A stretch of DNA of 64,000 nt from a bacterium. GTDB taxonomy: Bacteria > Patescibacteriota > Microgenomatia > Curtissbacterales > GWA2-41-24. Positions 21,198 through 37,852 of this stretch are shown here, piece by piece (the stretch's first letter is position 1; each line of letters begins with the position of its first letter). Both the position numbers and the translations under genes were made by a program. The DNA is taken from contig JAKAJD010000001.1 in assembly GCA_021813945.1 (NCBI GenBank), forward strand, positions 560,412-624,411. Direction: 5' to 3'. The notes beneath the pieces are model-generated. The model was not told the origin of the DNA and searched no databases. It saw only the letters and a list, made by a program, of their open reading frames with translations.

Positions 21198-22292
21198 TCA
21201 ATCAGGCAGAATTGACAGTTTGTAAACATTGGCAATTTTCGTCACTGCCGGCTTGGCGGTTCCGTCATCTCTAAAGATGGCAGTCGAACCTCCAAACGAA
21301 GTCCAGTAATTCATCCCAGCCACATTAGGATCTTTAACAAGAAGCGCAAGCGCCGAATCAATCCACCCTGCTTGTTCATCTTCCGTCATATTGCCGTTAA
21401 TATCCGGAATCGGTACACCTGTCTCCCCTAAAAAGATCTTGGCATTTGCCTTTTTAGCCAAACTATCGATGTCACCCAATAACTTATCCGCCCTATCAAC
21501 ATAGTGGTCTATGGCCACTACTCCACCCATCTGCTCTGCAGTATCTGAATCCATCACAAGTTTGGCGATGTCATAGTTCATTGACCATAAACCGCAATCG
21601 ACTTTCTTCCCGATTTTGGAAAATTCCGAATCGCACAACTGCTTTTCATCTATCATAAAGTTTCGAAAACCCGAAACGTCGCCGTTATTTCTAGGATCAC
21701 CAGGCCCTCCGTTTTCGCATTCAGGGCAAGGGCTAAAAATATCGCCGTCGACAAAAAGGTTGGGATTTTTTCGGATAAAAGCCGCAAGTTTAGTTTTGTG
21801 TTCATCCCGGCTCAAATCAGCAGGAACTCCGAACCAACCTTCCCATCCTGAAAAGTTGCCCCGAAACCAGACGTGAAGGTTGTAGCGCCTGGCAGCCGCC
21901 ACCCATCTCGAAAGGATCGGCACAAAGCGGTCGTCATAAGGCGTAGCGATAGCTACAGTATTAGCACCGGTTGCCGCAATACTTTTAACCTGTGAATCAA
22001 TAACTGCGTCAAAACGAGGATCGGTAATAGCTTGCGCCGAAAGATCTCTGGAAAATTTCATCGTGTCGACAGATTTAACACTCCATGTACGCTCCTGGGG
22101 CGCAGTCGGTTGTGGACCTTGTTGCACGGTAAAAATTGGCTTTTTGTTAAACATTAAAAATCCTAAAACTGCCGCAAAAACCAAAAGCACAGCAGCCAAA
22201 ACCCCAACCCAAAGCTTACTTTTGCTTGCCCAAAACCGGTTCATAGTTAAGCCCTCCCAAATACTGTGGTTTGATCTCATAAATATCCGCAA
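21198..22292 (-). CDS. Glycoside hydrolase, TIM-barrel clan GH-A (GH5/GH113-like), membrane-anchored
   Basis: N-terminal TM; GNFSGWEGW and IFLGETGVP motifs are consistent with the acid/base and nucleophile Glu of clan GH-A; family assignment is uncertain. Confidence 0.5.
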   Translation of the reverse strand: MRIFMRSNHSIWEGLTMNRFWASKSKLWVGVLAAVLLVFAAVLGFLMFNKKPIFTVQQGPQPTAPQERTWSVKSVDTMKFSRDLSAQAITDPRFDAVIDSQVKSIAATGANTVAIATPYDDRFVPILSRWVAAARRYNLHVWFRGNFSGWEGWFGVPADLSRDEHKTKLAAFIRKNPNLFVDGDIFSPCPECENGGPGDPRNNGDVSGFRNFMIDEKQLCDSEFSKIGKKVDCGLWSMNYDIAKLVMDSDTAEQMGGVVAIDHYVDRADKLLGDIDSLAKKANAKIFLGETGVPIPDINGNMTEDEQAGWIDSALALLVKDPNVAGMNYWTSFGGSTAIFRDDGTAKPAVTKIANVYKLSILPD

Positions 22293-23847
22293 AAGGAAAA
22301 TGTTGGATTAAAGCGTAATCTTCCTTAAAACCTACAGTATTTTTAATAAGTTTATACGTCTGATCACTATCGTCATAAGTTCGCATTACAATCCATCTCG
22401 CCCAATGCTCCGGACCGGAAGTTGCACTGTCCCAATAGGCGCCTGTTCCCTCGTGAATAAATCGCTTCATTGGAAGCCCCGAGGAAAAAATTATCGCATC
22501 ATGTGAGGCCGCAGAAATCAGCACAAAGCCTTTTTTGTCCTTTGCATTGGCTCTAAGCCAACCAGCAACTTCCGAAACGTTCTTCTGGGAAGACCCGACA
22601 CGTGCATCGTCAATAGTAACAGCATCAAAATTCGTATACGAGAAAAACGTTGCAAATAATAGCAAACCGATAATAATAACCCTAAAATCCTTAATTTTAT
22701 CGATAAGGTATCCAACCAAAATTGCTATCGTTGGTACCATCATCACGCCATATCGGACATTAAACCAAGTATTTCCAGAAAGTCCTTGGATAAACAACAC
22801 GGAAAAGCCAAAGTAAAGCGCCAGGATATTAAAGATAAAAGGGGTCATAAGCGCGCTTGAGCTTATTTTGACGCTTCCCTTGACCCTATCGCTTACCCAA
22901 AAGTAAATTGCCCCAACTAAACCAAGAGTAAGTGGCAACAGTCCTGTGTTGTAAAGAAGCGCAAAAAAATAAATCTTCACTGAAAGCCACAGATTACTTT
23001 TAGTAGCCAAATTTCCAGCCTCCAGAAGCTGCTGTTGCTGGGCATGCGCAGAATACGGGCCTAACGCAAAATACAGTGGGTCGCCAAAGATTGCCAAGTT
23101 CCACAAAAACCACAATGCTGCCCCAATCGCCGCAAGCGTCGAAAAGAATATAAGCGTACCCTCAGCGGCCTTATAACCCTTCTTGCGGTAAACGTGCCAA
23201 ACTATTAAAACTCCTGCCCACAAAAGCAGAAACCAACCGTCGTAACGGACCAGCGTCGAAAGGGCTATCCAAAAAGCCGATTTAATAAGCCGAAAAATCT
23301 TATCGGAAACATGCCACATCACCAACTCGTAAACGCCCGCCGTCATGGTAAACAGAAGCAAAAGTTCGGTCATTGCCGTTGATTGCAAGTACAAAATATT
23401 CAAGTTGGAAGCAAAAACAAATACGCCTGTTAACCGTCCGAGATAACCAACCCCTAAGTTCTTTAAAAACCTGTATATCAAATACCCTGTGCCGACATAC
23501 GAAGCCATCGAAACAATAGCCCCCGCAAAACCGGAGTGCCACAAAAAGTCATTCCAGATAAAGGGAATCATCATAATGTGAGGAAGTGGCAGCCAAACTG
23601 AACCTAACTGGGCAAGCCCCGGCTTAAGACCCTCTACAACCCTTCTTCCAATATCCAAATGTGATCTTGCATCGTTATATGCCAAACCCAAACCGTTTTT
23701 ATAAAAATAGAAGTAAGTTGCAATGCTAACCGCCGTCAAACAAAAAAGGACGGCCCATGAGATATTTTTTTCAAGGTTAGCATTTGCCCTTTTTAATAAA
23801 TTATTCGAAAAAAGAAACTGGACTACTCCACCGCCAATTTTTATCAT
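22216..23847 (-). CDS. Polytopic GT-C fold glycosyltransferase (ArnT/PMT-like, GT83/GT39-like)
   Basis: More than 10 predicted TM helices; first-loop motif YNDARSHLDIGRRVVE resembles the DE-x-RY-A motif of ArnT/PMT. Confidence 0.5.
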   Translation of the reverse strand: MIKIGGGVVQFLFSNNLLKRANANLEKNISWAVLFCLTAVSIATYFYFYKNGLGLAYNDARSHLDIGRRVVEGLKPGLAQLGSVWLPLPHIMMIPFIWNDFLWHSGFAGAIVSMASYVGTGYLIYRFLKNLGVGYLGRLTGVFVFASNLNILYLQSTAMTELLLLFTMTAGVYELVMWHVSDKIFRLIKSAFWIALSTLVRYDGWFLLLWAGVLIVWHVYRKKGYKAAEGTLIFFSTLAAIGAALWFLWNLAIFGDPLYFALGPYSAHAQQQQLLEAGNLATKSNLWLSVKIYFFALLYNTGLLPLTLGLVGAIYFWVSDRVKGSVKISSSALMTPFIFNILALYFGFSVLFIQGLSGNTWFNVRYGVMMVPTIAILVGYLIDKIKDFRVIIIGLLLFATFFSYTNFDAVTIDDARVGSSQKNVSEVAGWLRANAKDKKGFVLISAASHDAIIFSSGLPMKRFIHEGTGAYWDSATSGPEHWARWIVMRTYDDSDQTYKLIKNTVGFKEDYALIQHFPFADIYEIKPQYLGGLNYEPVLGKQK

Positions 23848-25359
23848 TTATTTATTCCTTTCAAGGGAAAATAAGGTGAAACCGAAAACAGCAATTATTG
23901 AGACTAAAATCACTAAATAAAAGACATTGAGGGTTAATAAGTGATCTAAATAGGTATTGTAGAAAAAAGAACTGGTAACTCCTTTTTGAAAAACATCCCA
24001 ATTGAGCATGTAATTCCATTTCATACCAAGCGCTACTGCCTCAACCTGCGGGGGAACTTGATTTGTTGTTATTGCTCCTAAAAGGTTGACAGAGGCTCCA
24101 TAGCAAAAAAGTCCAAAAAGCATTAGATTAAACCAAATCTTCTTTCTGAAAAGATCTACCGCTTCTGAAATAAAAATTGCCGCGAAGGCAAAAATGGGAA
24201 CCAAGTACCTTGGCCCAAATGCCCAACCGCCATACGGGTCACCCCACATCGTGTATAAGACAAAAATGAAAAGTACTGTGCCGATTAGTGCGACCGATTG
24301 CTCATATCTTCGCCTGATAAGCTCCCCTATTCCTAAAACAGCTACAATTACTATTGGCGCGTAATATATGAATCCTCTATCTTCGCTGAAAACAAGAGTG
24401 GCGAAACCGTGGCCCATCCTTCGTGTATTAAAAAATCTTGAAGTATTTTTCTGAGTTGAGAGCGTCTTAATAATGGGAGCATTATTCTGATCAAAATCCT
24501 TAACAGACGTTAAAGTTCCCGCAAGCTGAAAAGGCTTGTTAAAAACCGTTAAGCTGTAAAGTGAGTAGGCTCCTAAAGCCAGGACTATACCTAAAACTGC
24601 CAGAAGGAAGCGGGCTTGGAAAAAGATTTTCGTATATCTGCTGTCCCTTTGTACTTTTATTACGGTTTGCACAGCATAAAAAATTAGCGGGATAAAAAAT
24701 ATCGGGTTTTGGGAATCTATCCAAAATGATAGTCCAACCAAAAAAGCGGCTATCCCCAACCTAATAACATTCCTTTTGGAAAACAGCAAAGCAGCTGTCG
24801 AAAGAAGCAAAAAAGTAGTCAGCTGATGCTGGTAATAGGAAACGCTATACGCAAATGACGTTGTGGCAAACAGATAGCTGAGCCCTCCAACAATAGATGC
24901 TTTAAAAGAAATTTTAAGCTGCTGGCAAATTTTCAAAATCAGAAGAAAGTTCAAAACCGCAAAAAATGCAGGCATCGCAAAAGTAGATACCTGAGCCAAG
25001 TTAAATGGTGCACCTAACAAATAAAATGGCACACCCAAAATAGACATCCCGGGTGATACGAGAAGTGTGTACTTACCACTAAAAAACCCCAAATCGGGTG
25101 TTACAATTTTTGCGATATCTTGCCTCAAAAAGAAGCTGTGATCTTGGGCAAGAGACATTGTTAGGGCGTACCTACCCCGCTCCGGAGATAACTCAAAAGG
25201 CTGACCCATCACCTTCTGCTCATTATAAATTTGCGAAGATGTCGGATTTCCGTAATTTCCTTTCAAGGTTAAAACAAAAATAAGCGAAATAAAAATTACA
25301 AAAAAAGCGACTAAGAATTTTTTCATACGAGGCTCTTTGTTGTTTTCGAAAGCTCCCAT
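23848..25359 (-). CDS. Polytopic membrane protein, putative GT-C glycosyltransferase (PMT_2-like)
   Basis: Many TM helices; N-terminal ERGRYALTMSLAQDHSFF segment; adjacent to the other GT-C gene. Confidence 0.4.
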   Translation of the reverse strand: MGAFENNKEPRMKKFLVAFFVIFISLIFVLTLKGNYGNPTSSQIYNEQKVMGQPFELSPERGRYALTMSLAQDHSFFLRQDIAKIVTPDLGFFSGKYTLLVSPGMSILGVPFYLLGAPFNLAQVSTFAMPAFFAVLNFLLILKICQQLKISFKASIVGGLSYLFATTSFAYSVSYYQHQLTTFLLLSTAALLFSKRNVIRLGIAAFLVGLSFWIDSQNPIFFIPLIFYAVQTVIKVQRDSRYTKIFFQARFLLAVLGIVLALGAYSLYSLTVFNKPFQLAGTLTSVKDFDQNNAPIIKTLSTQKNTSRFFNTRRMGHGFATLVFSEDRGFIYYAPIVIVAVLGIGELIRRRYEQSVALIGTVLFIFVLYTMWGDPYGGWAFGPRYLVPIFAFAAIFISEAVDLFRKKIWFNLMLFGLFCYGASVNLLGAITTNQVPPQVEAVALGMKWNYMLNWDVFQKGVTSSFFYNTYLDHLLTLNVFYLVILVSIIAVFGFTLFSLERNK

Positions 25360-26264
25360 CCAAATCTTGGACTCACATAAGGCTTAATAACTAGACTCAG
25401 CCTTACGAAAAGTTCCAAAGCAAAATAGCATAAAGCATATGCTGGTGATTTCACAAATCCCAAGACTATCGCTCTCATTTTGTAGCTTCTTGGAATTTTA
25501 TAAACCTCTAATACACCGTCTCCAAAATACTTTTCCAACCTGTGTTTTGCTGATAAATTTCGTCTATGTTGAAGTAAGTAATCAAAAAAGGTGCTCGGAT
25601 TCCTAAAATAAACAAAGGCATTTTCAGCAAACACAAAACCCAAACCAGCCTCTCTGTTTTTAACATAAACAAAATCGTCTGTTCCATAAAGCCCCTGCGG
25701 CATCCTCAAACAGGTAACAAGCTCATGCGACATGGCCGAAATAGACCCTTGATGGTTGTGAACGTTATCACCATTGTTTAAGTTTCGCTTGGTCGAATGC
25801 CATATGTAATCGCCCATTTTGTGAACTTTTTCGATAAAAGATTTGGGATTATCGGCTATCCGAAATCCGGCAACCAAACCAACACCTTTTGCAAAACCGG
25901 AAACGAGGCGGGAAATAACCTTATCACTTGAAAGTATTACGTCACCGTCAAATTTTATACAAACATCACTCTTAGATCTCAAAAAAACTTCGTTCAAACG
26001 TGCTGCCAACCCCATCCTTTGGCTATATTCTATAAGTTCAATCTCAGAATTTCTAAACGACTTTACTTTAGAAACCGTCGAATCGGTACTCCCGTCAGAT
26101 ACAACAATAATTTTCTTAATATAGAAATTTTCTCCCTTCTGGCTTATGATACTTTTCAAAAGTCGTTCAATATTTTCATCCTCATTGTAAGCACAAATTA
26201 CAACATCTACCGTTTTTTTATTCTTCATATAACCACCCTTTTTGAAGATTGAGCGATTTCCCAA
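25323..26264 (-). CDS. Glycosyltransferase family 2
   Basis: VDVVICAYNEDENIERLL ... VVSDGSTDSTV GT2 signature. Confidence 0.8.
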   Translation of the reverse strand: MGNRSIFKKGGYMKNKKTVDVVICAYNEDENIERLLKSIISQKGENFYIKKIIVVSDGSTDSTVSKVKSFRNSEIELIEYSQRMGLAARLNEVFLRSKSDVCIKFDGDVILSSDKVISRLVSGFAKGVGLVAGFRIADNPKSFIEKVHKMGDYIWHSTKRNLNNGDNVHNHQGSISAMSHELVTCLRMPQGLYGTDDFVYVKNREAGLGFVFAENAFVYFRNPSTFFDYLLQHRRNLSAKHRLEKYFGDGVLEVYKIPRSYKMRAIVLGFVKSPAYALCYFALELFVRLSLVIKPYVSPRFGWELSKTTKSLV

Positions 26265-28063
26265 CCTGTCTTATTAGCAAATCTCCTTTTTGCGAAAATT
26301 TCACCATACCAAAAAACCAGGGAGTAGCCTAAAAATGAAACTGGCGAACTCAACAGAAAACTTGCAACCATCCTCACTCGGTCAGATATTCCAATACGAA
26401 AGGCTGAAATCACACTTTCTTTTTTGCCAAATTTTTTAATCAAAAGTTCCCTGCCTCCCATAAAACGCTGGCTCTGCTTAAAATGGTCCGCAATATTCGA
26501 GGGTGATCTGAAAATAACCCTGGCATTTTCACTGAATACGAATTTGAAACCCTTCTTCCGCGCAAAAAGATATGAAAAAGAGTCTTCAGGAAGCAATGTC
26601 GGCCAAACAATCAGTTTATAAAATTTCTTTGAAAAAGCCCTGGCCCTTCCGTGACAAAGATATAAATTATCCCCTCCCGACATTCTCAAATACATTTTGT
26701 TCTTAAAATAATGACTATCCGAAATAATTTTCTCAAAAAAAGTCACTGGCCTTGCAGACACAGTATTTGCTCCCACCAAACCTACGTTAGGATCCGAAAG
26801 AATGGGTAAAATCAGATTATCCAAAAAATCCCGTTTCACAGGCAAAACGTCACCATCCAAAATGACTAAAATATCTCCTTTGGCAGCTTTGGTAATTTGA
26901 TTCTGAGCTTTTTCCACACCCAACCTTATGTTATTTTCAATAACCTTAATCCTGGAATCTTTTTTTGAACGACAAATCTGGACAGTTCCGTCATCTGAAC
27001 CATCGGAAACAATAATTATCTCCAAAAGTTTCCCGTGAACTAGCTTCTGTTTTAAAATTCTGTCTATCAACAAACCAATATTCGCTTCCTCATTATATGC
27101 TGGGATTCCAACCGACACGGTGGCATTTAAATCAACAGCCCCCGGCCCGGAGACAAGTTCTTTTGAAGATCCGTAGATTTCGTGCACAGCGGAAAAAGCT
27201 GACCTTCTTAAAACGGCTAGCCTGTTTGCTATAATTTCCGCAAAAAACAAAACAGTCCAAAAGGGATTCTCAGCAAAATTGGAAATTAACGACCTAGCCG
27301 CCAGAAGAGGAGGAATCTTATATTCCGAGTCCAAAATCTCTTTAGGAAAATATTTTTCAAGAGCTTTTTTACCACTCAAAAATTTTTTTACCTGACGCTT
27401 CCGATCGGAAAAGCTGCCGACATTGCGCATGTAAGCCTGAGCTTTAGGATTTCTGGCCATGGAAAATCCAAGTTGTTTTAATCTGAAATATGTATACGCA
27501 TCCTCTGGAACATTTATCGGCCACTCCAGTTTTTTCGAAAAAGCCCTCGAAATAACCTTCATTGAATGCCCGCCTGATGTGTAAACGTTTAGCCCTTTTT
27601 TCCAAGTTGAAAAAAGCTTCAATTTAACTAAAAGCCCATGATAGAGTACTCTTTCATAAAATTTCTTTGGTTTAAGTGGTACAGGTCTTCCGATAACCAT
27701 GCCCAAATTGGAAATATTAGAATCATAAAAAGGCTTTACCAACTCCGAAAGCGTTTTATCCGAAACAGGCAGAATATCACCCTCGATAATTGCCAGCAAA
27801 TCTCCGCGAAAAAGCTGTAAGAGCTGGTTCTGTCTTGCCTGTTGGCCTAACCTTGTCCTGCCTTCTATAAGAGTAATCAAAGGATTATTGATGCTTTTAA
27901 CTAACTCGCAAGTCGAATCATAACTACCATCGGAAACCACAATTATTTCTTCTAGCTTAAATCCTTCTTGCTTCTGTAAAAGCAAGACCTCGATTAATTG
28001 GCAAATGTTTTTTTCTTCGTTAAAAACCGGAATCCCAACAGTTAGTGTAAGTTTTTTCTTCAT
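26225..28063 (-). CDS. Tandem double-GT2 glycosyltransferase (two GT2 domains in one polypeptide)
   Basis: Two copies of the GIPxxNEExNI ... VVSDGSxDxT signature, at about aa 10 and aa 310. Confidence 0.8.
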   Translation of the reverse strand: MKKKLTLTVGIPVFNEEKNICQLIEVLLLQKQEGFKLEEIIVVSDGSYDSTCELVKSINNPLITLIEGRTRLGQQARQNQLLQLFRGDLLAIIEGDILPVSDKTLSELVKPFYDSNISNLGMVIGRPVPLKPKKFYERVLYHGLLVKLKLFSTWKKGLNVYTSGGHSMKVISRAFSKKLEWPINVPEDAYTYFRLKQLGFSMARNPKAQAYMRNVGSFSDRKRQVKKFLSGKKALEKYFPKEILDSEYKIPPLLAARSLISNFAENPFWTVLFFAEIIANRLAVLRRSAFSAVHEIYGSSKELVSGPGAVDLNATVSVGIPAYNEEANIGLLIDRILKQKLVHGKLLEIIIVSDGSDDGTVQICRSKKDSRIKVIENNIRLGVEKAQNQITKAAKGDILVILDGDVLPVKRDFLDNLILPILSDPNVGLVGANTVSARPVTFFEKIISDSHYFKNKMYLRMSGGDNLYLCHGRARAFSKKFYKLIVWPTLLPEDSFSYLFARKKGFKFVFSENARVIFRSPSNIADHFKQSQRFMGGRELLIKKFGKKESVISAFRIGISDRVRMVASFLLSSPVSFLGYSLVFWYGEIFAKRRFANKTGWEIAQSSKRVVI

Positions 28064-28064
28064 G

Positions 28065-28985
28065 TTAAATCACCTTTTTTGAAGAAGGAACTGTTTCCCA
28101 TAAGCCTTGCTTAATAAGGGGCTCATCCTTCGTCGGAATACTTCTAATAACGTAGTGAAAAATCAGCGCTAAGGGCACCCAGAAAGGATTCTTCAGAAAG
28201 GCGGTTATGGTTCCTTTAACTTCTGCACTCCGCGGAACTTTGTATAGACCATAAGTCCAATCGCCAAAATACTCGGCTATCTTTTTGTTCACATTAGTGA
28301 AACGGTTAAACTGCTTAAGACGGTCTGCTACATTATCTGGGGATCGGTAAAAAACGACGGAATTCTTTGCAAAGCGACAACTCCTTTCGCTTTTGTAAGC
28401 TTTAAAAAACAAGAATTTATTTAACGAAAAATCCCCCTCAGGGCACTTAGTTTTTCTAGCAAAATCCCCCCGCACGGCAAATGCACAGGAACTAAAGTTG
28501 TGAATATTATGACCATCTTCAAGATCCTTTCTTATCTCGTACCAAATCAAAAACCAGGTATTAATGAGCTTTTCAGTGATATTTCTGGCCGGAACCGGAA
28601 TTTTATTAAAACCCACCAAATTAACTTTTTCGTCTTTGAACCAGTCAACAGCGTTGCCCAAGGAATCTTCATTTTCCAAAACTACATCTCCATCCAAATA
28701 GACTAAAATGTCTCCCCTCCCGCCCGCAAAAAACTGATTAACCCTGGCTGTTTTCCCTAAACGTCTTCCATCTGATACTAGCGCCACTTTTCCCTCCTTT
28801 TGCGAAAATGCTCTTACTATCAAATCAGTTTTATCGGTTGACCCGTCGCTGTAAACATAAATCCTGTCGATTTGAAAATTTTCCTGCTTCTGACCACAGA
28901 TTGAATTCAAAATATTTTCGATATTTTCCTGCTCGTTGTAAGCGGAAATTCCAAGTGTAACTTTCGGCGTTTTAAATTTGCTCAT
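28065..28985 (-). CDS. Glycosyltransferase family 2
   Basis: LGISAYNEQENIENIL ... VYSDGSTDKTD. Confidence 0.8.
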   Translation of the reverse strand: MSKFKTPKVTLGISAYNEQENIENILNSICGQKQENFQIDRIYVYSDGSTDKTDLIVRAFSQKEGKVALVSDGRRLGKTARVNQFFAGGRGDILVYLDGDVVLENEDSLGNAVDWFKDEKVNLVGFNKIPVPARNITEKLINTWFLIWYEIRKDLEDGHNIHNFSSCAFAVRGDFARKTKCPEGDFSLNKFLFFKAYKSERSCRFAKNSVVFYRSPDNVADRLKQFNRFTNVNKKIAEYFGDWTYGLYKVPRSAEVKGTITAFLKNPFWVPLALIFHYVIRSIPTKDEPLIKQGLWETVPSSKKVI

Positions 28986-29946
28986 GTACTTTTGCTAATT
29001 TTGGTGAATCGTTTCGAGGCCAAAAATCGACAAACTTCAAAATAGGCCTGGCCGCAAACGCTAGTCGCATTTTGAAAATCATATAAAAAACAAACATCCA
29101 AGGATCGCTTACAAAAAACTTCCATGCGACTCTTAAATCGAAAATTAGGCTGTCTTTAAAAACGTTTTGGACAATCTCAGGTTTGAAATAATTGTTAACG
29201 ATTTTTTCAGCAGAAACGTTTTTTCTGTACTCACCCACAAAATCCCCGATGCTCGTTGGACATCGGAAAATTCGAACCGCAAAAGGCGCAAAAACCGTGT
29301 CGAAATTATGGACCTTGCACCACAAGTGGGCATAAACATCCTCGGGAACACCTGCCGGCCATTTCAGTTTGGAGTAAACTTGTTTCGAAAATAAACGACC
29401 GCCTCGCCCGCATGTGTACCATTTTCTTTTTGTATAATCGCTAATTTCAAAATAGTGATAAAGCCTCGATTGCATTGACAAAACCTTCTCCATAATGGTT
29501 TTTCCGGCCAAAGGTTTGGCGTTTCCTTGAACCAAACCAATAGATCTGTTGCGCGCATAAGGTTCGACTAAATAATTCAAGTAGTTTTTCCCGTCGGTTA
29601 ACGTATCAGCCTCAAGAATCACGACAGCATCACCTTTTGCCATAGAAAAAATTTTATTCTGACAAAAACTTTGACCTTTTCGGGTCTGGTTATCAACAAG
29701 TTTTACCCGATTGTCCTTATATGTCTTGACGATTTGGCCGGTCCTATCGTTGCTACCGTCACTAACAACGATAATTTCCTGCAAACTGAACCATGTTTGC
29801 TTCTGGTTCAAAGTTTCTCTCAGCAAACTCCTTATATTCGCTTCTTCGTTGTAAGCCGGTATACCAACCGTCAAATTTACTTTTCCTTTCATATTCTTGA
29901 ATTTCCTTTCAAAAAACCACTCATGATAATTTTCTGTTCTTTTCAA
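28972..29946 (-). CDS. Glycosyltransferase family 2
   Basis: TVGIPAYNEEANIRSLL ... VVSDGSNDRTG. Confidence 0.8.
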   Translation of the reverse strand: MKRTENYHEWFFERKFKNMKGKVNLTVGIPAYNEEANIRSLLRETLNQKQTWFSLQEIIVVSDGSNDRTGQIVKTYKDNRVKLVDNQTRKGQSFCQNKIFSMAKGDAVVILEADTLTDGKNYLNYLVEPYARNRSIGLVQGNAKPLAGKTIMEKVLSMQSRLYHYFEISDYTKRKWYTCGRGGRLFSKQVYSKLKWPAGVPEDVYAHLWCKVHNFDTVFAPFAVRIFRCPTSIGDFVGEYRKNVSAEKIVNNYFKPEIVQNVFKDSLIFDLRVAWKFFVSDPWMFVFYMIFKMRLAFAARPILKFVDFWPRNDSPKLAKVHEQI

Positions 29947-32900
29947 TTATTTTTTCTAAGGTCTCGGTGCTTTGTTCCCAGCTAAAGTTTTCCGCCCATC
30001 TAACGCTAAACTTCTCGAAATCCCGCCTTAGGCGGTCATCGCGAATAAGCAATGTGATTTTTTGTGCAAGTTCAGATGAATCTCCCCAAGGCACCAGAAA
30101 ACCGTTGTGCGGATTTTTGACTGAATCCCGAAGACCGGGAACGTTAGAAGCTACAACTGGAGTACCACTGGCATTAGCTTCAATCACTGTGATCCCCCAA
30201 CCCTCGACCATTGAAGGTTGTGCAAGAACCCACGATTTGGCTAGCAGATCTGTCTTTGTTTTTTCGGATATCTTCCCTAGAAACTGAACGGCGTCACCAA
30301 GCTTAAGCTCCTCTGCCAGCTCCTCAAGTGAAGACCTGCTTTCACCTTCGCCTGCAATAACAAGCTTTGCTTTCTGCATGTCCGCCTTTATAAGAGCAAA
30401 AGCCTTAATGAGAATATCTATAGATTTATAAGGTTTCAGTCTTCCAAGGTATAGAACCACTGGACTTTTAGCTTTGGGCATGGGTTTAAATTTGGTTAAA
30501 TCAACACCCGGATGAATAATATCGATTGGAATTTTCCTTCCCAAACCAATCTTTTCCATATCCAGCTTTGATGATTTGGAGACGGTAACCAGCTTCACAT
30601 TCTGATAAATGAATGGCATAAGAACCCCTTCTAGAAATTTTCCGAACTGCGCAAAAGGAAATCTCAACTTTGTGCGGAAAACGTCTTGATGAATATGATG
30701 GACCAGTCCGACAATCGGTTTGCCAACATAAAGGGGAGTAAAAAACGGAATTCCGTTTTCGCTGTCAATGACTAAATCAAAGTGCTTTCTAAGCTTTAAT
30801 AAATAGTAAAGAGGCGCCAGAAGGTAGATTGTGTAAAAACCGCCGCGCCTTATGATCTCCACCCCGTCTATACATTCATAAGTTGGATTTTTTCTGTCAT
30901 TCCCACAAAAAACAGTCACCTGATTGCCATTTTTGATAAGACCTTTGGCTATCTCGTGTATGTAAACCTCCGCTCCTCCCGCCCAAACATGACGAGTGTC
31001 CCTCCAGTTGAAAATAAGAATTCGCTTTTCTGCTTGCCACGCAGGTCTTTTCGGTAAATCAAACTTGAATAAATCAATGATGTCCTTAAAATTTGAACCC
31101 AAAGTTGCCAAATCATCTCTAAAGAAATGCAAAATCATAACCGCAACGAGATTGGCAATACCGGCGACTAGCATTACGTCAACAATCTGTGGAACGGAAT
31201 TATGAAAGATGAAAATCCCGCCAATTTGGCCTAAAGCCAAAACAAAACTAACTATCGGGAAAATATGTTGGTGTTTAACCTGGTAATAATTGACAATTCT
31301 GGCAGCTATCGTAAAAGCCAAAATTCCAAAGCCGTAATAAGGAATCAAGTGTTCGACAGGGTGAATCTTTTGTCCTATCAAAAGCTCGGCAACCTCAAAG
31401 CCTAAAAAGGAAACTCCTAAATAAACCATGGTGCTGGAAATAGCTGATGCCAAAAACAACTTGTAAAATGCCTTTCTGCTGTCTCTTTTTGCGCCTTCCT
31501 CACGGCTAATTATCGGTGTAATAAATTGACCGAAAAGTCCACCCATGAAAAAGATCATTTTGCCAAAAAGCGCGAGAACCGCGTATTCACCCGCCTCTTT
31601 GGGTGAAAGAAATACTTTTGCCAAAATCACATCAAAGCTTAAAAATGCCAGGATCGAAAATTCCGAAAAAGCCGAGGTCATAAAGAAATGGACAGGAAAT
31701 TTAATTGCTTTTTTTACATTAACAACTACCTCCTTCTCAGAAACTGCATTAACTGAAAGCCAAGCCAAAAGCGCGGCTATGCCAATAGACGCCGGAATTG
31801 CTGCATAAACGTATTGCGGAAGTCCTAAGCTCACTAAAATCCAGCTGATTACAAATTTGGAAATAGCACCCACAACCATCAACCCGGCATATATGACAAA
31901 TTTCATATTTCCGTACAAAAAGCCAACATCAATTGCTGAAATTAAGCCCAAATACCAAACCGGAGCAAAAAGCACAAAAGGTAAGATTGAATCCGATTTA
32001 AAAATAGGAGCAATAAAAGGACTCGCCCCAAGCCATAAACCTGTAAAAACAAGTCCAAAAACAATCGCTCTTTTTCTAACCTGTCGCCAAAATAATTTAA
32101 CCGGACTTCCGTATTCTCCTAAAAAATAGGCACTTCTATGGGTGACTGTTCGGGAAAGGCTGTTAAATGGGATAGTGACTATAAACAAAAAGCTTCCCAC
32201 AAGGCTAACCAAACCAAATTGCTCAATAGAAATCGTCCTTCCTAAATAGGCGTTATAAGCAAAATTGAAGAAGTTTCCGACAACTGAAGCCAAAATCAAA
32301 ATACCTCCTGCAGCCTTGCCAGATTTAGCCAGTAGGCGCAGTTTGGCTACGTCAAAAAGTCCTGTATACGCTGCCTTGGGAGCCGGAATCGGCTCGGTTT
32401 CGTCCTCAACAAATTCTTTCTCAAGATTTCTGTTTTCCAAATTAAGCCCGTGGACGGTCTTTTCCCAAAAGTGCGGTTTAAAAATAAGCTGGTATAGCGC
32501 CTTTACACCGGCAACTGAAACCAAAAGCCAGTAAAATGGCACCAGAAAGACATATCTCATTAGTCCCCATTGCTCCCTTTTGGCACAGCCAATCATGTAG
32601 TAGTAGACAAAAAGGAAGTTGCCAAAAACCAAAGAAGAAACAGCCATGTAGAAAATAAATGATGGAAAAAGAGCTTCAATTGTTGTTCCAACCGCGGCGT
32701 TAAGCACAAAGTAAGCAATTGTCAAAAGCCACAAAATCGGATTGATAAAAATGAAGGCAATCTTTCCGCCCACTATCAGCTGGAAAATAAACGCGTGGAT
32801 GCCGTTTTCGCGCACGAACTCCACCGGGTTTCGCGTATGAACCAGATAAGTCTGCATATAACCTTTAATCCAACGCGACCTCTGGCGGATCCAATTTCCG

Positions 32901-34570
32901 ATTTGGCTATTAGCTTCTTCTAAAGTTGTTGAGTCGATAATTGCCGTCTTGTAGCCGATCTTAAAAAGCCGAACTCCCAAATCGGCATCCTCGGTTACGT
33001 TGAAAGGGTCCCATCCTTCAAAACGCCTAAGGTCCTCTGTTCTAAAATGATTGCTGGTTCCCCCAAGAGGAATTGCAGTATTGATCGATTGCATTCCGGT
33101 TAACGTGAGGTCAAACCAAAGCGAATATTCTGCTGTAAAAAGCCTGGTTAAAAAGTTCTGATCCGGGTTAAAGTAGTTGAGCTTCGCCTGCAAACACACG
33201 ACCTCCCGGGGCAACTTCAAAAAGCCCAAATAAGCCTTTTTAAGCTGCTGCGGGTCGGGTATATCCTCGGCATCGTAAATAACCACGTATTCCCCTTTTG
33301 CAAGCGTTAAACCGTAGTTGCAAGCCTTAGGTTTCGTTTTGGGCAAGGAATGAGGAACAATAACTTTTTTGATATATTTCGGAAGCTTACTGTTATCCAG
33401 CGCTTTTATTGTCTCTTTGTCGTCTGCTTCCAAAAGCAGCAAGACATCCAGCTTTTCCTTTGGCCAGTCAATAGCCTCCAAAGCATCCAGAAAGTTAGGT
33501 AAAATGGCAGCTTCCCGATAAAGAGGGCACAAAACCGAATAAACGGGCAGCTCTTCATCGTCGAGTTTAGCAATTTGCGATGGTGTAAAAGTTATATCCG
33601 GCGGAGACTGAAGACTTCTTAAAACCAAAAAAAGATTGAAAACTACGTCAAAAAAATAGATCGTTGAAAGAACTGCAATGAATACTGCAACCGCTTGCAG
33701 CGGCCCTAAAAAAAATCCCAGCGCTGCTGCCCCAAAAATCGAAGCGAAAATGACTTTCTGCAAAAAAGTAAAGTTGATAACCGCCGATTTTCTGTGGCTC
33801 AAAGTTGTGTGGGTTATGAATTTTCGCCCTAAAAAACCGACTCCCGCGCCGCGCATCACTTCCCCTTCTTCGGGCCTAATATGAACAGGTGCTTGCCGTA
33901 GGGTTTTTAAAGCCAGCGCATTGGTTGCCAAATCCCAACCGTTTCTCAAAAAGCTTATTTTTGAATCCCCACCTTGGCGTTTTTCAAACGCAACATCCAC
34001 TTCACCAACTGAAAAACCGGCATTTTTAGCTCTCACCAAAAATTCCAAATCGAAAGACCAGGGTGATTTTGGACTAAACTTTACTGTTTCAAAAACTTGG
34101 CGCTTAAAAGCTTTAAGGCCGGACTGAACGTCACAGCCAATGCCGTGAAGCAGTCTGCCAAAGGCAAACTTAAAGATCTTGGAAAAAGTTTTTCGAAATA
34201 TTGGCGCTTTATATTCGCTTCTGTTGGCAACGACAATGTCAACTTCCGAAAGGCCTGAAACAAGATCGGCGATTGCTTCGGGCGGATACTGCAAATCCGC
34301 ATCTATCATCACCAAAATATTGCCGGAAGCTTTAGAAAAACCTTCAACGAGTGAGTAAGACTTACCTTTCTCGCCCTCTTTTCTAAAGACTCTGAGCGGG
34401 AATTTTTTCCGAAGTTTTAAAAGAAGTTCCCACGTGCCGTCGGTTGAAAAATCGTCAACAACTACAATCTCATGTGCTTTTGGGAACGCGAAAAGTGCCT
34501 TCTCGATACGCTCGAGCAGGCTTTCAACATTACTAACCTCGTTAAATGTCGGTACTACGACACTAACCAT
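29921..34570 (-). CDS. Four-module mega-glycosyltransferase (1549 aa). In order: a Dpm1/GtrB-like polyprenyl-phosphate sugar synthase GT2; a processive GT2 with the QxxRW motif; a polytopic membrane domain with about 12 helices; and a C-terminal GT4.
   Basis: Module 1 (about 33880-34570): VVVPTFNE, VVVDDFSTDGT, MIDADLQYPPE. Module 2 (about 32770-33550): YDAEDIP, FRTEDL, TEDADLG, QRSRW. Module 3 (about 31030-32770): multi-TM, MOP/flippase-like. Module 4 (29921-31030): EGWGITVIEANASGTPVVASN of GT4. Confidence 0.8.
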   Translation of the reverse strand: MVSVVVPTFNEVSNVESLLERIEKALFAFPKAHEIVVVDDFSTDGTWELLLKLRKKFPLRVFRKEGEKGKSYSLVEGFSKASGNILVMIDADLQYPPEAIADLVSGLSEVDIVVANRSEYKAPIFRKTFSKIFKFAFGRLLHGIGCDVQSGLKAFKRQVFETVKFSPKSPWSFDLEFLVRAKNAGFSVGEVDVAFEKRQGGDSKISFLRNGWDLATNALALKTLRQAPVHIRPEEGEVMRGAGVGFLGRKFITHTTLSHRKSAVINFTFLQKVIFASIFGAAALGFFLGPLQAVAVFIAVLSTIYFFDVVFNLFLVLRSLQSPPDITFTPSQIAKLDDEELPVYSVLCPLYREAAILPNFLDALEAIDWPKEKLDVLLLLEADDKETIKALDNSKLPKYIKKVIVPHSLPKTKPKACNYGLTLAKGEYVVIYDAEDIPDPQQLKKAYLGFLKLPREVVCLQAKLNYFNPDQNFLTRLFTAEYSLWFDLTLTGMQSINTAIPLGGTSNHFRTEDLRRFEGWDPFNVTEDADLGVRLFKIGYKTAIIDSTTLEEANSQIGNWIRQRSRWIKGYMQTYLVHTRNPVEFVRENGIHAFIFQLIVGGKIAFIFINPILWLLTIAYFVLNAAVGTTIEALFPSFIFYMAVSSLVFGNFLFVYYYMIGCAKREQWGLMRYVFLVPFYWLLVSVAGVKALYQLIFKPHFWEKTVHGLNLENRNLEKEFVEDETEPIPAPKAAYTGLFDVAKLRLLAKSGKAAGGILILASVVGNFFNFAYNAYLGRTISIEQFGLVSLVGSFLFIVTIPFNSLSRTVTHRSAYFLGEYGSPVKLFWRQVRKRAIVFGLVFTGLWLGASPFIAPIFKSDSILPFVLFAPVWYLGLISAIDVGFLYGNMKFVIYAGLMVVGAISKFVISWILVSLGLPQYVYAAIPASIGIAALLAWLSVNAVSEKEVVVNVKKAIKFPVHFFMTSAFSEFSILAFLSFDVILAKVFLSPKEAGEYAVLALFGKMIFFMGGLFGQFITPIISREEGAKRDSRKAFYKLFLASAISSTMVYLGVSFLGFEVAELLIGQKIHPVEHLIPYYGFGILAFTIAARIVNYYQVKHQHIFPIVSFVLALGQIGGIFIFHNSVPQIVDVMLVAGIANLVAVMILHFFRDDLATLGSNFKDIIDLFKFDLPKRPAWQAEKRILIFNWRDTRHVWAGGAEVYIHEIAKGLIKNGNQVTVFCGNDRKNPTYECIDGVEIIRRGGFYTIYLLAPLYYLLKLRKHFDLVIDSENGIPFFTPLYVGKPIVGLVHHIHQDVFRTKLRFPFAQFGKFLEGVLMPFIYQNVKLVTVSKSSKLDMEKIGLGRKIPIDIIHPGVDLTKFKPMPKAKSPVVLYLGRLKPYKSIDILIKAFALIKADMQKAKLVIAGEGESRSSLEELAEELKLGDAVQFLGKISEKTKTDLLAKSWVLAQPSMVEGWGITVIEANASGTPVVASNVPGLRDSVKNPHNGFLVPWGDSSELAQKITLLIRDDRLRRDFEKFSVRWAENFSWEQSTETLEKIIEKNRKLS

Positions 34571-34722
34571 TTGAACCTTTTTGGGCAGATTTAATTAAGC
34601 AGAAGTTTTAGGCAGTTCGATCAGAAATCGAAGGGTCATAATAACATATAGTAGTTGGAAAGACAATACTTAACCTTTTAAAGCTGAGGCTTATAGTTTT
34701 GAAGCTGAAAGGCGCAAAATCC

Positions 34723-36924
34723 CTAGAATAAGAAGTGTCTCAAGGCCATGGCGCTGGCGGCAAATCGGGAAAACAGCCTAGACACCAAAACCGAAGGCTT
34801 AGGAAAGGTGTATCCCCGAAGTCGCGTAACGTAGGCAACCACAACCCTCCAAGGTCTTGCAATTAACCTTTGGGCAATATAGAGAATCCCCAAGTAACCA
34901 AGAATCATAAATGCCGTCTCCAGCCAGTTTCTAGCGGATGCAATGTTAGACGCGCCCTCTAGTCCTTGCCCCGAACTGCTGCCCCCACTTGTCGAAGCCG
35001 CCAAAACGTCCGGCACAATGCCGCCTGTTGGAAATACCGAAACATACGATAGTCCTACCTGGAAACTTGTTTGTGAAGAAGAAGAAATTATGTCGTCACT
35101 TGGCCCGACCTTGCCCTGGGCATCGACTTCGGCAGAGTATGTACCCGCCGGTGCTTTTTCAGAAAGCACCAGGCCAAAGGAAATATTAGCTACATGTCCG
35201 GAATCCAGCTTGCCAACACCAAAACTTTGCTCGGAAGCCAAACTACCGTCCGGCGCCCACAGCTTGAAAGTTATATTGGTGTCGTAAACCGGTCCGGTCC
35301 CGCTGTTTTTGGCTGCAGCAAAGAAAGTTACCGTATCGCCTGGATTTACATAGCCTCCAACGTTAGTCGAAATTTTGGTCGAAAGCGCACCTCCGGGACC
35401 ATGCACATCCGGCTGACTCTGACTTTGACTCTGACTCTGACTTTCAGTAGCCGCAAACTGGCTAGCCCCGCCAATATCTCCATTTAAAGTCCCAAAAATG
35501 TTAATAATTCCAAAAAATCCCTTTACGTTTACAAAATTGGCATTGACAAAATTGATAATATTCACAACAGAAAAGGCCGAACCTGTTCTAATCGACCCGT
35601 TACCAATACTATTGCCACCTGTGTTAGCAGAAGAAACCACCCGGTTTGTTAAACTTACCGAGTTACTCTGCGTCAAATCACCGCAACCACAACTACCGCC
35701 TACCCCTCCTTGGCCTAAAGGCCCGAAATCAAAACTCATCAAGCCGTAAACTGGATCCGCCGCCCCAGCACTTCCCCAACCCAAAAACTTACCATTCCAA
35801 GTTCCTAAATTATTAATAAGAAGCTGGGCAAAACTGCCTCCAAAGATATTTAAATTGGCAAAATTGGAAACATTAACAGCCGTCGTTGCATTACCGGTCG
35901 ATGTATTTCCTCCGCCACTGGTATTTGATCCGCTATTTGATGTAGCTTCCACATTATTTTGGATGTTGGCACTATTTTGCTGGCTTACGCTCCCGCCTCC
36001 GCTTTGACTCTGACTTTGACTTTGACCTGACCCGCCTGTCCCTAAATTGTCCGGCAAAACAATATTGCCGGAAACATTCCCAAAAAGATTCAATACGACA
36101 AACTTAATGCTGGACCCGAAAAAGTTTGTATTAATAAAGTTCAAAAGGTTAACCGAAGAATAAGCATTTCCGGTCTGAACATTACCTGTACCCAAAACGC
36201 TGTTTTGTCCGCTATTGGCAGCAGCATATATAAGGTTAACAACTAGCGCATTGTTGCTTTGGTTTCCAACAACTACCATTGCCGAGGGAAGCAGCTGACC
36301 ATCGGCAAGCTGCGTCAAGTCAATATTGCCGTTTTCGTCGGCATAAACATTCTTGATGCTATAAGCATATGCAGAGTCGGCAATATTGCTGTTTGCCGAA
36401 TTGACTACAGTCACATCGGTTGTGGCGCCACCGGTGTTAATATTGCCGCCGACAGAGCCAGTATTATTAGTGGAAGGACTTGCTGACCCGCTTGCTTCGA
36501 CTGTAGCAGACTGTGTCGCTTGGTTACTTTCTATATCAGAAGGTGTACCTACTGTATTATTTCCGGTATTGGAAGTAGAAGAAACATTATTGCCAACTGT
36601 CGCGTTGTTCTGCTGGTTAACATCGCCGCCCGGGCAGCTTGAAGGACAAGGCGACGGTGATGGGCTTGGGTCAGGGCTTGGTGTCGGGCTTGAATCAACC
36701 GAAGTCGTTTGAGTCGTTGGTATGGGTGTTGGGGTTGGTGACGCTGATATCGAAGTATCAGATGCGGGTGTTGGACTCGGTGAATCCGAAGGGCTGGGCG
36801 TTGGAGTCGGTGTTGGATCAGTAGTAGTTGTACCAGTCGTCTGATCTGCCCACACCAACCTTCCGGGCAAAAACCCGATCGACAAAAATATTATTAGTGT
36901 AATCGCTGTAATTCTTTTAATCAT
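34723..36924 (-). CDS. Cell-surface protein with a signal peptide, a Thr/Pro/Ser-rich linker and Asn/Ser/Gly-rich repeats. (SQ)n tracts are encoded by hexanucleotide repeats. C-terminal hydrophobic anchor.
   Basis: MIKRITAITLIIFLSIGFLPG signal; [21 protein letters not shown] linker; GACTCT/GACTTT tandem tracts at 35414-35445 and 36003-36030. Confidence 0.55.
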   Translation of the reverse strand: MIKRITAITLIIFLSIGFLPGRLVWADQTTGTTTTDPTPTPTPSPSDSPSPTPASDTSISASPTPTPIPTTQTTSVDSSPTPSPDPSPSPSPCPSSCPGGDVNQQNNATVGNNVSSTSNTGNNTVGTPSDIESNQATQSATVEASGSASPSTNNTGSVGGNINTGGATTDVTVVNSANSNIADSAYAYSIKNVYADENGNIDLTQLADGQLLPSAMVVVGNQSNNALVVNLIYAAANSGQNSVLGTGNVQTGNAYSSVNLLNFINTNFFGSSIKFVVLNLFGNVSGNIVLPDNLGTGGSGQSQSQSQSGGGSVSQQNSANIQNNVEATSNSGSNTSGGGNTSTGNATTAVNVSNFANLNIFGGSFAQLLINNLGTWNGKFLGWGSAGAADPVYGLMSFDFGPLGQGGVGGSCGCGDLTQSNSVSLTNRVVSSANTGGNSIGNGSIRTGSAFSVVNIINFVNANFVNVKGFFGIINIFGTLNGDIGGASQFAATESQSQSQSQSQPDVHGPGGALSTKISTNVGGYVNPGDTVTFFAAAKNSGTGPVYDTNITFKLWAPDGSLASEQSFGVGKLDSGHVANISFGLVLSEKAPAGTYSAEVDAQGKVGPSDDIISSSSQTSFQVGLSYVSVFPTGGIVPDVLAASTSGGSSSGQGLEGASNIASARNWLETAFMILGYLGILYIAQRLIARPWRVVVAYVTRLRGYTFPKPSVLVSRLFSRFAASAMALRHFLF
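35414..35445 (-). repeat. In-frame hexanucleotide tandem repeat (GACTCT/GACTTT)n encoding (SQ)n
   Basis: Seen in sequence; second tract at 36003-36030. Confidence 0.6.
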
Positions 36925-37576: not shown

Positions 37577-37652
37577 TATTATTTTCACCTCCTTCCCTAA
37601 AAAGGATATTTCCGCTAGGTTGTCCAAAAAAACAAAAAGCGGAGGCTCATTG

Positions 37653-37669
37653 CCTAGCAAATTGCTAGG
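37653..37669. promoter_or_regulatory. Perfect 17-bp palindrome CCTAGCAA-A-TTGCTAGG nested in a longer inverted repeat, about 80 nt upstream of the 37576 start. Candidate operator.
   Basis: Seen in sequence; flanked by GCGGAGG ... CCTCCG arms. Confidence 0.3.
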
Positions 37670-37852
37670 AAACAAACCTCCGTTTGCGGCCGGTTTACCC
37701 TCCAAAACTTTAGTGAAGAAGGGTTAAATATTAAAATTTTGGACAGAAAAGCGAAAGTTTCGGGGCAGAAAACTGAAACTATAAACACACTACCACCGAA
37801 AATTTACCCTGTCAAGTGCCCTCATTCAGCCTCAAAAACGATCAATTTGAAA

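Follow-up and report, generated by a model that had tools for sequence, protein, structure and literature searches.

A block of minus-strand genes at positions 21198-34570 of the 64-kb DNA stretch analysed here (hereafter the window; from the 976-kb metagenomic contig JAKAJD010000001.1) encodes a four-module glycosyltransferase (mega-GT), a cassette of family 2 glycosyltransferases (GT2), two membrane transferases of the GT-C type that we call A and B, and a glycoside hydrolase-like protein (GH). We consider it moderately probable that this locus is a core envelope-glycan assembly machine of the Microgenomates, a class-level group within the Patescibacteria (candidate phyla radiation, CPR), which builds and decorates an envelope glycan. 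Homology and fold identify its catalytic modules and membrane topology, and its gene order and gene fusions recur in related genomes; from these we infer what the enzymes may make and where they may place it.

The gene content and packing of the block agree with what an earlier note had drawn from the same DNA. All ten minus-strand open reading frames (ORFs) that it placed between 21198 and 36924 are present at those positions, as the contiguous glycosylation block that it described (Table 1), and Pfam recovers its four GT2 genes, including the tandem double. The operon-like packing that it saw in 25323-34570 is also real, and tight packing runs further, through the GT-C genes to the GH. Using the start codons of the database proteins (492, 348 and 301 aa), the junctions from the mega-GT to the GH are overlaps of 4-29 nt or gaps of 0-1 nt; at the sole uncertain junction, the mega-GT and the first GT2 gene either overlap by 26 nt or leave ~28 nt between them, according to which start is used. 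From mega-GT to GH, the block is thus laid out as expected of one tightly packed operon, as which we predict it to be transcribed. The promoter-like site listed in Table 1 is weak evidence, since the regional site counts in our promoter and terminator scans equal the shuffled expectation and the scans are uninformative overall. Profiles of A, B and the GH find no further matching gene within the window.

Table 1. Features of the glycosylation locus and its 5' neighbour (window coordinates; module boundaries of the mega-GT in residues).
Feature	Coordinates	Strand	Basis or remark
Candidate membrane-anchored extracytoplasmic clan GH-A-like hydrolase or transglycosylase	21198..22292	-	probable start 22244 (348 aa)
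GT-C A, 543 aa, putative divergent PMT_2/PMT-superfamily transferase with conserved C-terminal soluble domain	22216..23847	-	AlphaFold2 fold, remote homologues
GT-C B, 492-503 aa, predicted transferase, almost wholly membrane-embedded	23848..25359	-	AlphaFold2 fold
Variable cassette, four genes with five paralogous ~300-aa GT2 modules	25323..29946	-	PF00535/PF13641
Single GT2 gene	25323-26264	-	Pfam
Tandem double GT2 gene	26225-28063	-	two PF00535 stretches
Single GT2 gene	28065-28985	-	Pfam
Single GT2 gene	28972-29946	-	Pfam
Mega-GT module 4, aa 1186-1549, predicted cytoplasmic retaining GT4, EX7E motif	29921..31015	-	Pfam, PDB relatives
Mega-GT module 3, aa 705-1185, putative 12-helix MOP/Wzx-like flippase block	31016..32458	-	transmembrane prediction, PF01943
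Mega-GT module 2, aa 337-700, predicted PgaC/BcsA-like processive GT2 with flanking transmembrane helices	32471..33562	-	BcsA and PgaC_IcaA matches, motifs
Mega-GT module 1, aa 1-260, predicted DPMS/ArnC/GtrB-like polyprenyl-phosphate sugar synthase	33791..34570	-	PDB sequence matches, invariant D90-A-D92
Promoter-like -35/-10 site, TTGTCT-17-TATTAT, extended TG	34638..34666	-	in the 152-nt gap 5' of the mega-GT; weak evidence
PT-rich, C-terminally anchored surface protein, 733 aa	34723..36924	-	signal-like N-terminus, C-terminal transmembrane helix

Pfam divides the mega-GT (29921-34570) into a GT2 domain (residues 3-162), a second GT2 domain (344-627), Polysacc_synt (756-1007) and GT4 (1198-1538). 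The best PDB sequence relatives of module 1 are DPMS of P. furiosus (5mlz, E 5e-29, residues 2-206), ArnC (1e-21, 2-259) and GtrB (3e-14, 2-167), and its D90-A-D92 motif is invariant in 29 aligned mega-GT orthologues. As a DxD-containing GT2 that aligns to characterised members of the class, module 1 is predicted to be a Dpm1/DPMS-type polyprenyl-phosphate sugar synthase, which bears out the Dpm1-like module proposed earlier. Module 2 matches BcsA over residues 337-653 in the PDB sequence search (E 6e-17) and the NCBIfam model PgaC_IcaA (TIGR03937, E 1.5e-27, model positions 35-393 of 407). Its D433-A-E-D436, T526-E-D528 and Q563-R-S-R-W567 motifs are invariant in the 29 orthologues, and transmembrane (TM) helices flank it, two before and four after (residues 270-311 and 591-689). 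These features make up the signature of a processive membrane GT2 (D,D,D,QxxRW, TED and flanking TM helices), from which polymerisation and export are predicted.

Module 3 contains twelve predicted TM helices and, scanned alone, scores 29.1 bits on PF01943 against a cut-off of 28.2. Among the 29 orthologues, this block matches Polysacc_synt (PF01943) in 7/29, Polysacc_synt_3 (PF13440; best 1.5e-10) in 3/29 and MatE in 2/29, and unlike the catalytic motifs it is poorly conserved in their alignment. A profile of module 3 searched against PDB retrieved no solved relative, only G-protein-coupled receptor chimeras that represent compositional noise. Module 4 matches PF00534 (E 5.6e-45) and PF13439, has MshA, PimA, PimB and PglH as PDB relatives, and carries an EX7E motif whose E1456 and E1464 are invariant in the 29 orthologues. 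Because the TM helices are predicted in a 2+4+12 arrangement, all three GT domains would lie on the cytoplasmic side of the membrane.

The two GT-C proteins match no Pfam family themselves, and we characterised them through predicted structures and remote homologues. The AlphaFold models of both were built from alignments of homologues. That of B has a predicted local distance difference test (pLDDT) score of 95, and all 12 of its PDB matches by Foldseek at E<=1e-3 are GT-C enzymes (TM-scores 0.39-0.50), among them ArnT, AglB, PglB, EmbA/C, ALG9/ALG3, AftB, Pmt4 and STT3. The model of A has a pLDDT of 73.6; its top 24 PDB matches are likewise all GT-C enzymes, led by STT3-type oligosaccharyltransferases (E 4.7e-4 to 3e-3) and ArnT. 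Across both proteins, the GT-C matches have TM-scores of ~0.4-0.5 and at most ~15% identity. The models thus confirm a predicted GT-C fold for A and B, but assign neither to a specific family.

A has >3700 homologues, the 120 best of which are mostly 62-83% identical to the window protein, and a profile search of the family collected 2727 clusters at 50% identity. Because remote full-length homologues match PF13231 (PMT_2; 53/83, best 5e-11) and PF02366 (PMT; 11/83), A would be a divergent branch of the ArnT/PMT superfamily by transitive homology; PF16192 (PMT_4TMC) is not among the families matched by these 83 proteins. Members in which A is fused to other domains score 27-35 bits on PF13231 against a cut-off of 26.1. 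D59, W85, E161 and R201 are invariant across the remote members, and D59, which follows TM1, persists unchanged in members as distant as 27-41% identity. A G-x-Y-W-[DE]-S-A motif at residues 469-475, in the C-terminal soluble domain, is invariant in the close family and faintly recalls the WWDYG motif of oligosaccharyltransferases; its YW[DE]SA part (residues 471-475) is not maintained in remote members.

B is far less conserved than A, with most of its listed homologues at ~35-40% identity, and PF13231 is carried by 2 of the 120 listed. Its sole NCBIfam match is NF047440, a putative GT family represented by Leptospira LA_3751/LA_3752 (E 9e-16, below cut-off). After TM1, E56 and D89 are invariant and E60 is present in >=90% of members; like D59 of A, they are candidates for the conserved acidic residue that GT-C enzymes have in their first extracytoplasmic loop, with a putative catalytic role. 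In relatives, B at times shares an uninterrupted ORF with enzymes of the cassette, as in GT2+CE4 deacetylase+B (L025 18888-22208), GT2+GT4+B (L042 15602-19249) and APH kinase+deacetylase+B (L038 22857-25841). A direct BLASTP comparison of A with B is not significant and hhalign gives a marginal alignment (E 7e-4, probability 26%); we reject recent paralogy and regard them as two distinct GT-C families.

Membership of A and B in the STT3/oligosaccharyltransferase, PMT or YfhO families was also rejected, as the defining models are unmatched. Neither protein matches PF02366 or PF16192 at E<=10, nor MIR in Pfam, nor YfhO in Pfam or NCBIfam, nor the STT3 model PF02516, and A contains no WWDYG or DK/MI motif. 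Single-sequence and profile searches of A, B and the GH against PDB gave nothing meaningful, only chance matches (oligo-alginate lyase, FliY). Of the earlier description of two ArnT/PMT-like GT-C transferases, the fold holds for both, the superfamily tie holds for A through its remote homologues, and the PMT, PMT_4TMC, MIR, YfhO and STT3 models lend it nothing.

The GH is supported less directly than the GT genes. It belongs to a family of >2100 members at 50-65% identity that has no Pfam domain, and it has a single predicted N-terminal TM helix. Among 65 family members, 31/65 match PF11790 below threshold (best 4.7e-4) and 2/65 match GH5, and a member fused to A (P0370) reaches 26.2 bits on PF11790 against a cut-off of 21. 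Invariant residues comprise C189-P-E191-C-E193, D262-H-Y264, E290 in GE[FT]G and W330; E191/E193, H263-Y264, E290 and W330 would fit the clan GH-A pattern under an inferred strand assignment, with E191/E193 and E290 as candidate catalytic glutamates. The tyrosine-to-glutamate distance of 26 residues equals the GH5 spacing. We call the protein GH-A-like because of the weak PF11790 matches, this residue constellation, the anchor helix and, above all, the bona fide GH5 and GH113 and the window-type GH domains that are fused to A elsewhere. The clan GH-A glycosidase named in the earlier note is thus supported by residues, PF11790 and fusions, and lacks a significant family match of the window protein itself.

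We then asked how the locus is conserved, scanning one genome per species and annotating 80 retrieved loci with the A, B and GH profiles and the window proteins. Mega-GT relatives, mostly full-length and 41-72% identical, occur in >=263 species-level genomes. Named homologues come from Amesbacteria, Curtissbacteria, Woesebacteria, Gottesmanbacteria, Levybacteria, Roizmanbacteria and Daviesbacteria, all of them lineages of the Microgenomates/Patescibacteria. The recurring order in the 80 loci is mega-GT, variable cassette, B, A and GH, and B directly precedes A in most of them. In the 47 loci with >=9.9 kb of downstream sequence, B is found in 42/47, A in 41/47 and the GH in 32/47. Many public metagenome-assembled genome records that contain the locus (L012, L014, L019 and others) are titled "uncultured Gammaproteobacteria", "Bdellovibrionales" or "Pseudomonadales", and one A homologue is labelled Bathyarchaeia; such labels probably reflect mislabelled bins.

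Gene fusions, which we counted in the A family's 149 best cluster representatives, point in the same direction as gene order. A is fused to a clan GH-A hydrolase in 17/149 representatives, namely to GH5 in 12/149, to a window-type GH in 4/149 and, as GT2b-A-GH113, in 1/149 (P0466, from Ktedonobacteraceae, Chloroflexota); the hydrolase sits at the C-terminus of A. Other representatives have the architectures GT2b-A (7/149), GT2a-A (2/149) and GT2a-GT2b-A (1/149), where GT2a-GT2b corresponds to the N-terminal half of the mega-GT. Fusion to the processive GT2 is counted in 10/149. A B-A fusion occurs in 1/149 (P0361), its B part 33% identical to window B over 514 residues, and 2/83 of the remote A members carry LysM. 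The system has a minimal form in a Paceibacterota locus (L087), where an A-GH5 fusion comes directly after GT2a-GT2b. All modules fused to A make, cut or bind glycans, and no protein-binding module was found among them. The independent fusions tie the core components together and, with the tight packing and conserved order, indicate one functional unit.

The cassette between these conserved ends is highly variable. The interval from mega-GT to B spans 952-9323 nt in relatives (median ~5 kb), and one of the GT2 genes of the window is missing even from the nearest relative (L009, 71% identity). Within the window, the five GT2 modules are 26-36% identical to one another. Cassettes of relatives mix genes for ~300-aa GT2, GT4, methyltransferase, CE4 deacetylase and hexapeptide acetyltransferase proteins, together with APH-type kinase, CDP-alcohol (phosphatidyl)transferase and cytidylyltransferase genes; in one locus (L001), dTDP-rhamnose and UDP-sugar genes adjoin downstream. 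GC content is 0.38-0.40 across 24001-30000, which covers the cassette and B and is the window minimum, against ~0.44-0.45 elsewhere. Low GC at such a site is typical of surface-polysaccharide gene clusters, and with such a hypervariable, GC-poor cassette flanked by conserved ends the locus resembles those for polysaccharides.

Taken together, these data suggest the following model. At the cytoplasmic face, the PgaC/BcsA-like processive GT2, the GT4 module and the GT2 paralogues of the cassette would build a glycan whose backbone chemistry is conserved and whose decorations are lineage-specific, set by the variable cassette. The DPMS-like module would charge polyprenyl phosphate with a sugar, and the fused Wzx-like block may flip this lipid-linked sugar to the outer face. 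There B and A, probably as a pair, would move the sugar from the lipid onto the exported glycan, and the membrane-anchored GH-A-like enzyme, coupled to A, would trim or transglycosylate the polymer. The sugars themselves and the bond made by each module are conjectural in this scheme.

Lipid-linked transfer outside the cytoplasm is supported by the Dpm1-like synthase together with the GT-C transferases, and for its acceptor a glycan is more likely than a protein. We favour a glycan because A is found fused to glycan hydrolases, to a processive synthase and to LysM, and because the hypervariable low-GC cassette carries tailoring genes of the methyl-, acetyl-, deacetyl- and phospho-alcohol type. 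Several points weigh against our model. The case is computational throughout, for the sugar and the acceptor alike. The island encodes no initiating phosphoglycosyl transferase, Wzy, ATP-binding cassette (ABC) exporter or LytR-CpsA-Psr (LCP) ligase. The MOP (multidrug/oligosaccharidyl-lipid/polysaccharide) assignment of the mega-GT TM block barely exceeds threshold, the model of A is of moderate confidence with its most conserved loop (residues 58-98) at pLDDT <50, and the PF11790 match of the window GH is not significant (E 0.15). Finally, PMT-family relatives and the many proline/threonine-rich (PT-rich) proteins of this genome leave a protein acceptor some probability.

The earlier note had read the island as a lipid-linked O-glycosylation system for such PT-rich proteins. 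On this reading, to which we give a minor chance, the DPMS-like module would supply the donor, A and/or B would modify Ser/Thr in PT-rich linkers, and the cytoplasmic GTs would elaborate the product. The donor synthase, the GT-C fold of A and B and the PMT_2 and PMT matches of remote A homologues all suit it, as does the experimental precedent of streptococcal GtrB/PgtC2 and PgfS/PgfM1 (PMC12041528). So do the PT-rich linkers, which occur in 6/41 large ORFs of the window. We confirmed them in the subtilase, a pilin and the 54468 protein and in the secreted protein at 34723-36924, which has a signal-like N-terminus and a PT-rich stretch reaching 90% S/T/P in a 20-aa window; the CAP protein 3' of the island has one as well. 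However, the secreted protein is not downstream of the island, as had been thought, but upstream, 5' of the mega-GT on the same minus strand. Co-occurrence with PT-linker neighbours is rare in relatives, where a 733-aa homologue lies upstream of the mega-GT in 5/55 loci, the nearest upstream gene is PT-rich in 3/69, and 2.1% of flanking ORFs are PT-rich, compared with the 6/41 of this window. A and B match none of the PMT, PMT_4TMC, MIR, YfhO and STT3 models, the recurrent partners of A (GH5, GH113, GH128-like, LysM and processive GT2) include nothing peptide-binding, and known systems of the O-mannosylation type have no use for a processive synthase and a GH, both of which belong to the conserved core here. 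Models, fusions and neighbours thus speak against PT-rich proteins as acceptors, while the lipid-linked extracytoplasmic logic of the earlier proposal stands.

An en-bloc mechanism appears unlikely. Here the processive GT2 would build its polymer on polyprenyl phosphate primed by the DPMS-like module, and A would act as a ligase or oligosaccharyltransferase that transfers it to peptidoglycan, a lipid anchor or protein, with the GH partner setting chain length or transglycosylating. STT3-type enzymes and ArnT do lead the fold matches of A, but its model is only moderately confident (TM-scores ~0.45-0.5), it lacks the WWDYG and DK/MI motifs and an STT3 Pfam match, and its YW[DE]SA motif is not kept in remote members. 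The strong conservation of A beside a variable cassette fits an enzyme for which the lipid-linked reducing end and the acceptor both stay constant, fusions of the types GT2a-GT2b-A and GT2b-A-GH occur, and the island is without Wzy, ABC exporter and LCP ligase; yet synthases of the BcsA/PgaC type normally export their polymer without a lipid carrier. A speculative extension of this mechanism, which we also hold to be doubtful, is that the GT2b-A-GH triad, fused in some CPR bacteria and Chloroflexota, constitutes a new route to wall polysaccharide in monoderms, in which a β-glycan is made on polyprenyl phosphate, A ligates it en bloc to the wall or to proteins, and the GH serves as a transglycosylase or chain-length setter. 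If true, the cassette would give each lineage its own surface serotype, relevant to host recognition by episymbionts and to phage attack.

Mycobacterial Ppm1 and PimE/MptA/MptB pair a lipid-sugar synthase with GT-C enzymes. A lipoglycan in the style of mycobacterial lipomannan/lipoarabinomannan, in which the GT4 and processive GT2 would glycosylate a membrane lipid that B and A extend with polyprenyl-phosphate sugar after flipping, is very unlikely: the DPMS-like module with two GT-Cs parallels that pairing, the GT4 module is nearest MshA, PimA and PimB, B is without a large soluble domain like PimE-/ALG-type GT-Cs (with ALG9, PimE and AftB among the fold matches), and some cassettes contain CDP-alcohol phosphatidyltransferase genes, but no lipid-anchor enzyme is conserved in the core, a lipid acceptor has no direct evidence, and the QRSRW/TED synthase with its GH partner suggests a long β-glycan instead of stepwise lipid mannosylation.

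Several genes around the island deserve mention in their own right. We considered the 733-aa protein as a member of the operon and rejected this, given its place 5' of the operon, its 152-nt separation and its unconserved position. Repeat units of the form SNTGxN…TGxA…VxVxNxxNxNV are common to this protein and a 197-aa ORF (37112-37705, minus strand), and homologues of the two co-occur in four related loci (L009, L023, L028 and L041); they look like a small family of repeat-built surface proteins that has no Pfam annotation. Just 3' of the GH lies a CAP/YkwD protein (20091-21059, minus strand) with a Pro/Ser/Thr-rich linker (…PSPIPSPTPQ…TTPIPSPSPAP…) and C-terminal TM helices; CAP genes are found near the island in several relatives, at varying positions. 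In a 650-aa protein encoded on the plus strand (42710-44662), >=9 TM helices are predicted within the first 375 residues, followed by a soluble middle part and, at the C-terminus, TPR repeats. Pfam detects no GT domain in this protein, and its sequence shows no relation to A or B; in architecture it is similar to GT-C-plus-TPR proteins (TMTC/PMT_2-TPR), and it would be a more natural candidate for a protein glycosyltransferase. Further along, a gene at 47026-52386 (minus strand) encodes a 1786-aa bacterial alpha-2-macroglobulin (MG2, A2M_BRD, A2M) with a Hint/intein-like insert at about residues 937-1067 (PT-HINT 1e-9; Hom_end_hint and Intein_splicing matches).

In the literature on Patescibacteria/CPR glycosyltransferases, GT-C enzymes, cellulose synthase and cell walls, our searches turned up no account of this locus, nor of the A, B and GH families. 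The modules are all of known enzyme classes, and the locus merges the logic of multi-component transmembrane glycosylation with that of synthase-type polysaccharide synthesis. Its apparently new features are a mega-GT of four modules, an obligate pair of GT-Cs together with a GH-A partner, and the layout of conserved ends and variable middle across a CPR lineage. Almost nothing is known about the envelope chemistry of the Microgenomates, which are ultrasmall and have not been cultured, and the locus occurs in many of their genomes. A is strongly conserved among its best homologues, yet has no Pfam family and no name, and three large families of "hypothetical proteins" can now be labelled GT-C, GT-C and GH-A-like. 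Conserved ends with a hypervariable middle are the signature of a surface antigen under diversifying selection, which makes the product of the locus a strong candidate for the main surface glycan; such a glycan would mediate host attachment and phage recognition. The synthase–GT-C–hydrolase unit is also present in Chloroflexota (Ktedonobacteraceae), some of whose members are in culture, which brings the question within reach of laboratory tests.

Finally, we compared the locus with known systems. Systems composed of a C55-P-sugar synthase, a GtrA- or Wzx-type flippase and a GT-C decorate lipoteichoic acid, wall teichoic acid and rhamnose polysaccharides (PMC8035078; 10.1101/180810; PMC11127046), a precedent for the glycan acceptor that we favour. 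GtrB/GtrA/GtrC, CsbB/GtcA/YfhO and GacI/GacJ/GacK/GacL combine a GT2 polyprenyl-phosphate sugar synthase and a flippase with a polytopic GT-C acting outside the membrane, and our locus resembles them with its DPMS-like module, putative flippase block and GT-C proteins. These systems transfer a sugar onto a cell-wall polymer; the acceptor of our locus is a putative glycan. A flippase role of Wzx-type proteins is known in GacK-type systems (PMC8035078), a precedent that the fused Wzx-like block would fit. Unlike the three-component systems, the locus has synthase and putative flippase in one 1549-aa protein together with a processive GT2 and a GT4, and it has two unannotated GT-C families (not YfhO/GtrC) with an obligate GH-A-like partner.

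Protein-modifying systems share part of this logic. Streptococcal GtrB/PgtC2 and PgfS/PgfM1 (GT-C) glycosylate Ser/Thr-rich disordered regions outside the cytoplasm, and the Pgf operon holds two GT-C genes (PMC12041528). Like these and actinobacterial Ppm1/Pmt, the locus combines a Dpm1-like synthase with extracytoplasmic GT-C enzymes; it shares the number of GT-C genes with the Pgf operon, and Ser/Thr/Pro linkers are abundant in this genome. It differs from all of these in that A and B are not PMT (PF02366/PF16192) or YfhO proteins by sequence, its core has a processive synthase, GT4 and GH along with a variable cassette, A is fused to glycan-active domains, and PT-rich neighbours are not a constant feature. 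ArnC/ArnT is close at the level of single enzymes, as the N-terminus of the mega-GT matches ArnC, both GT-Cs have ArnT as their best or near-best match in structure, and PF13231, the family of ArnT, is matched by 53/83 remote homologues of A. Unlike in the ArnC/ArnT case, a monoderm CPR cell has no lipid A, no Arn sugar-modification genes accompany the locus, and identity to ArnT is 9-13%.

In the Agl N-glycosylation system of Haloferax volcanii (AglJ/AglD, AglR, AglS and AglB), Dpm1-like GT2 enzymes work on polyprenol monophosphate, and a Wzx-like flippase is joined by a pair of GT-C enzymes, of which one transfers the glycan and the other adds the final lipid-linked sugar. Weak NCBIfam matches to AglJ (1.6e-16) and Agl16 (3.9e-25) were seen for our locus. 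Our locus has no STT3/AglB signature (WWDYG; PF02516), and unlike Agl it includes a processive synthase and a GH. The pairing of a processive synthase with a hydrolase is typical of polysaccharide systems such as PgaC/PgaB for poly-N-acetylglucosamine and BcsA/BcsZ for cellulose. The locus resembles them in its processive GT2, with the same motifs and flanking TM helices, and in its candidate dedicated hydrolase from the same operon; CE4 deacetylases occur in pga/ica operons, as they do in several related cassettes. In contrast to PgaC/BcsA systems, it contains no PilZ/cyclic di-GMP module, BcsB/PgaD-type partner or outer-membrane porin, its hydrolase is GH-A-like and not GH8/GH153, and it has coupled GT-C enzymes, which are absent there.

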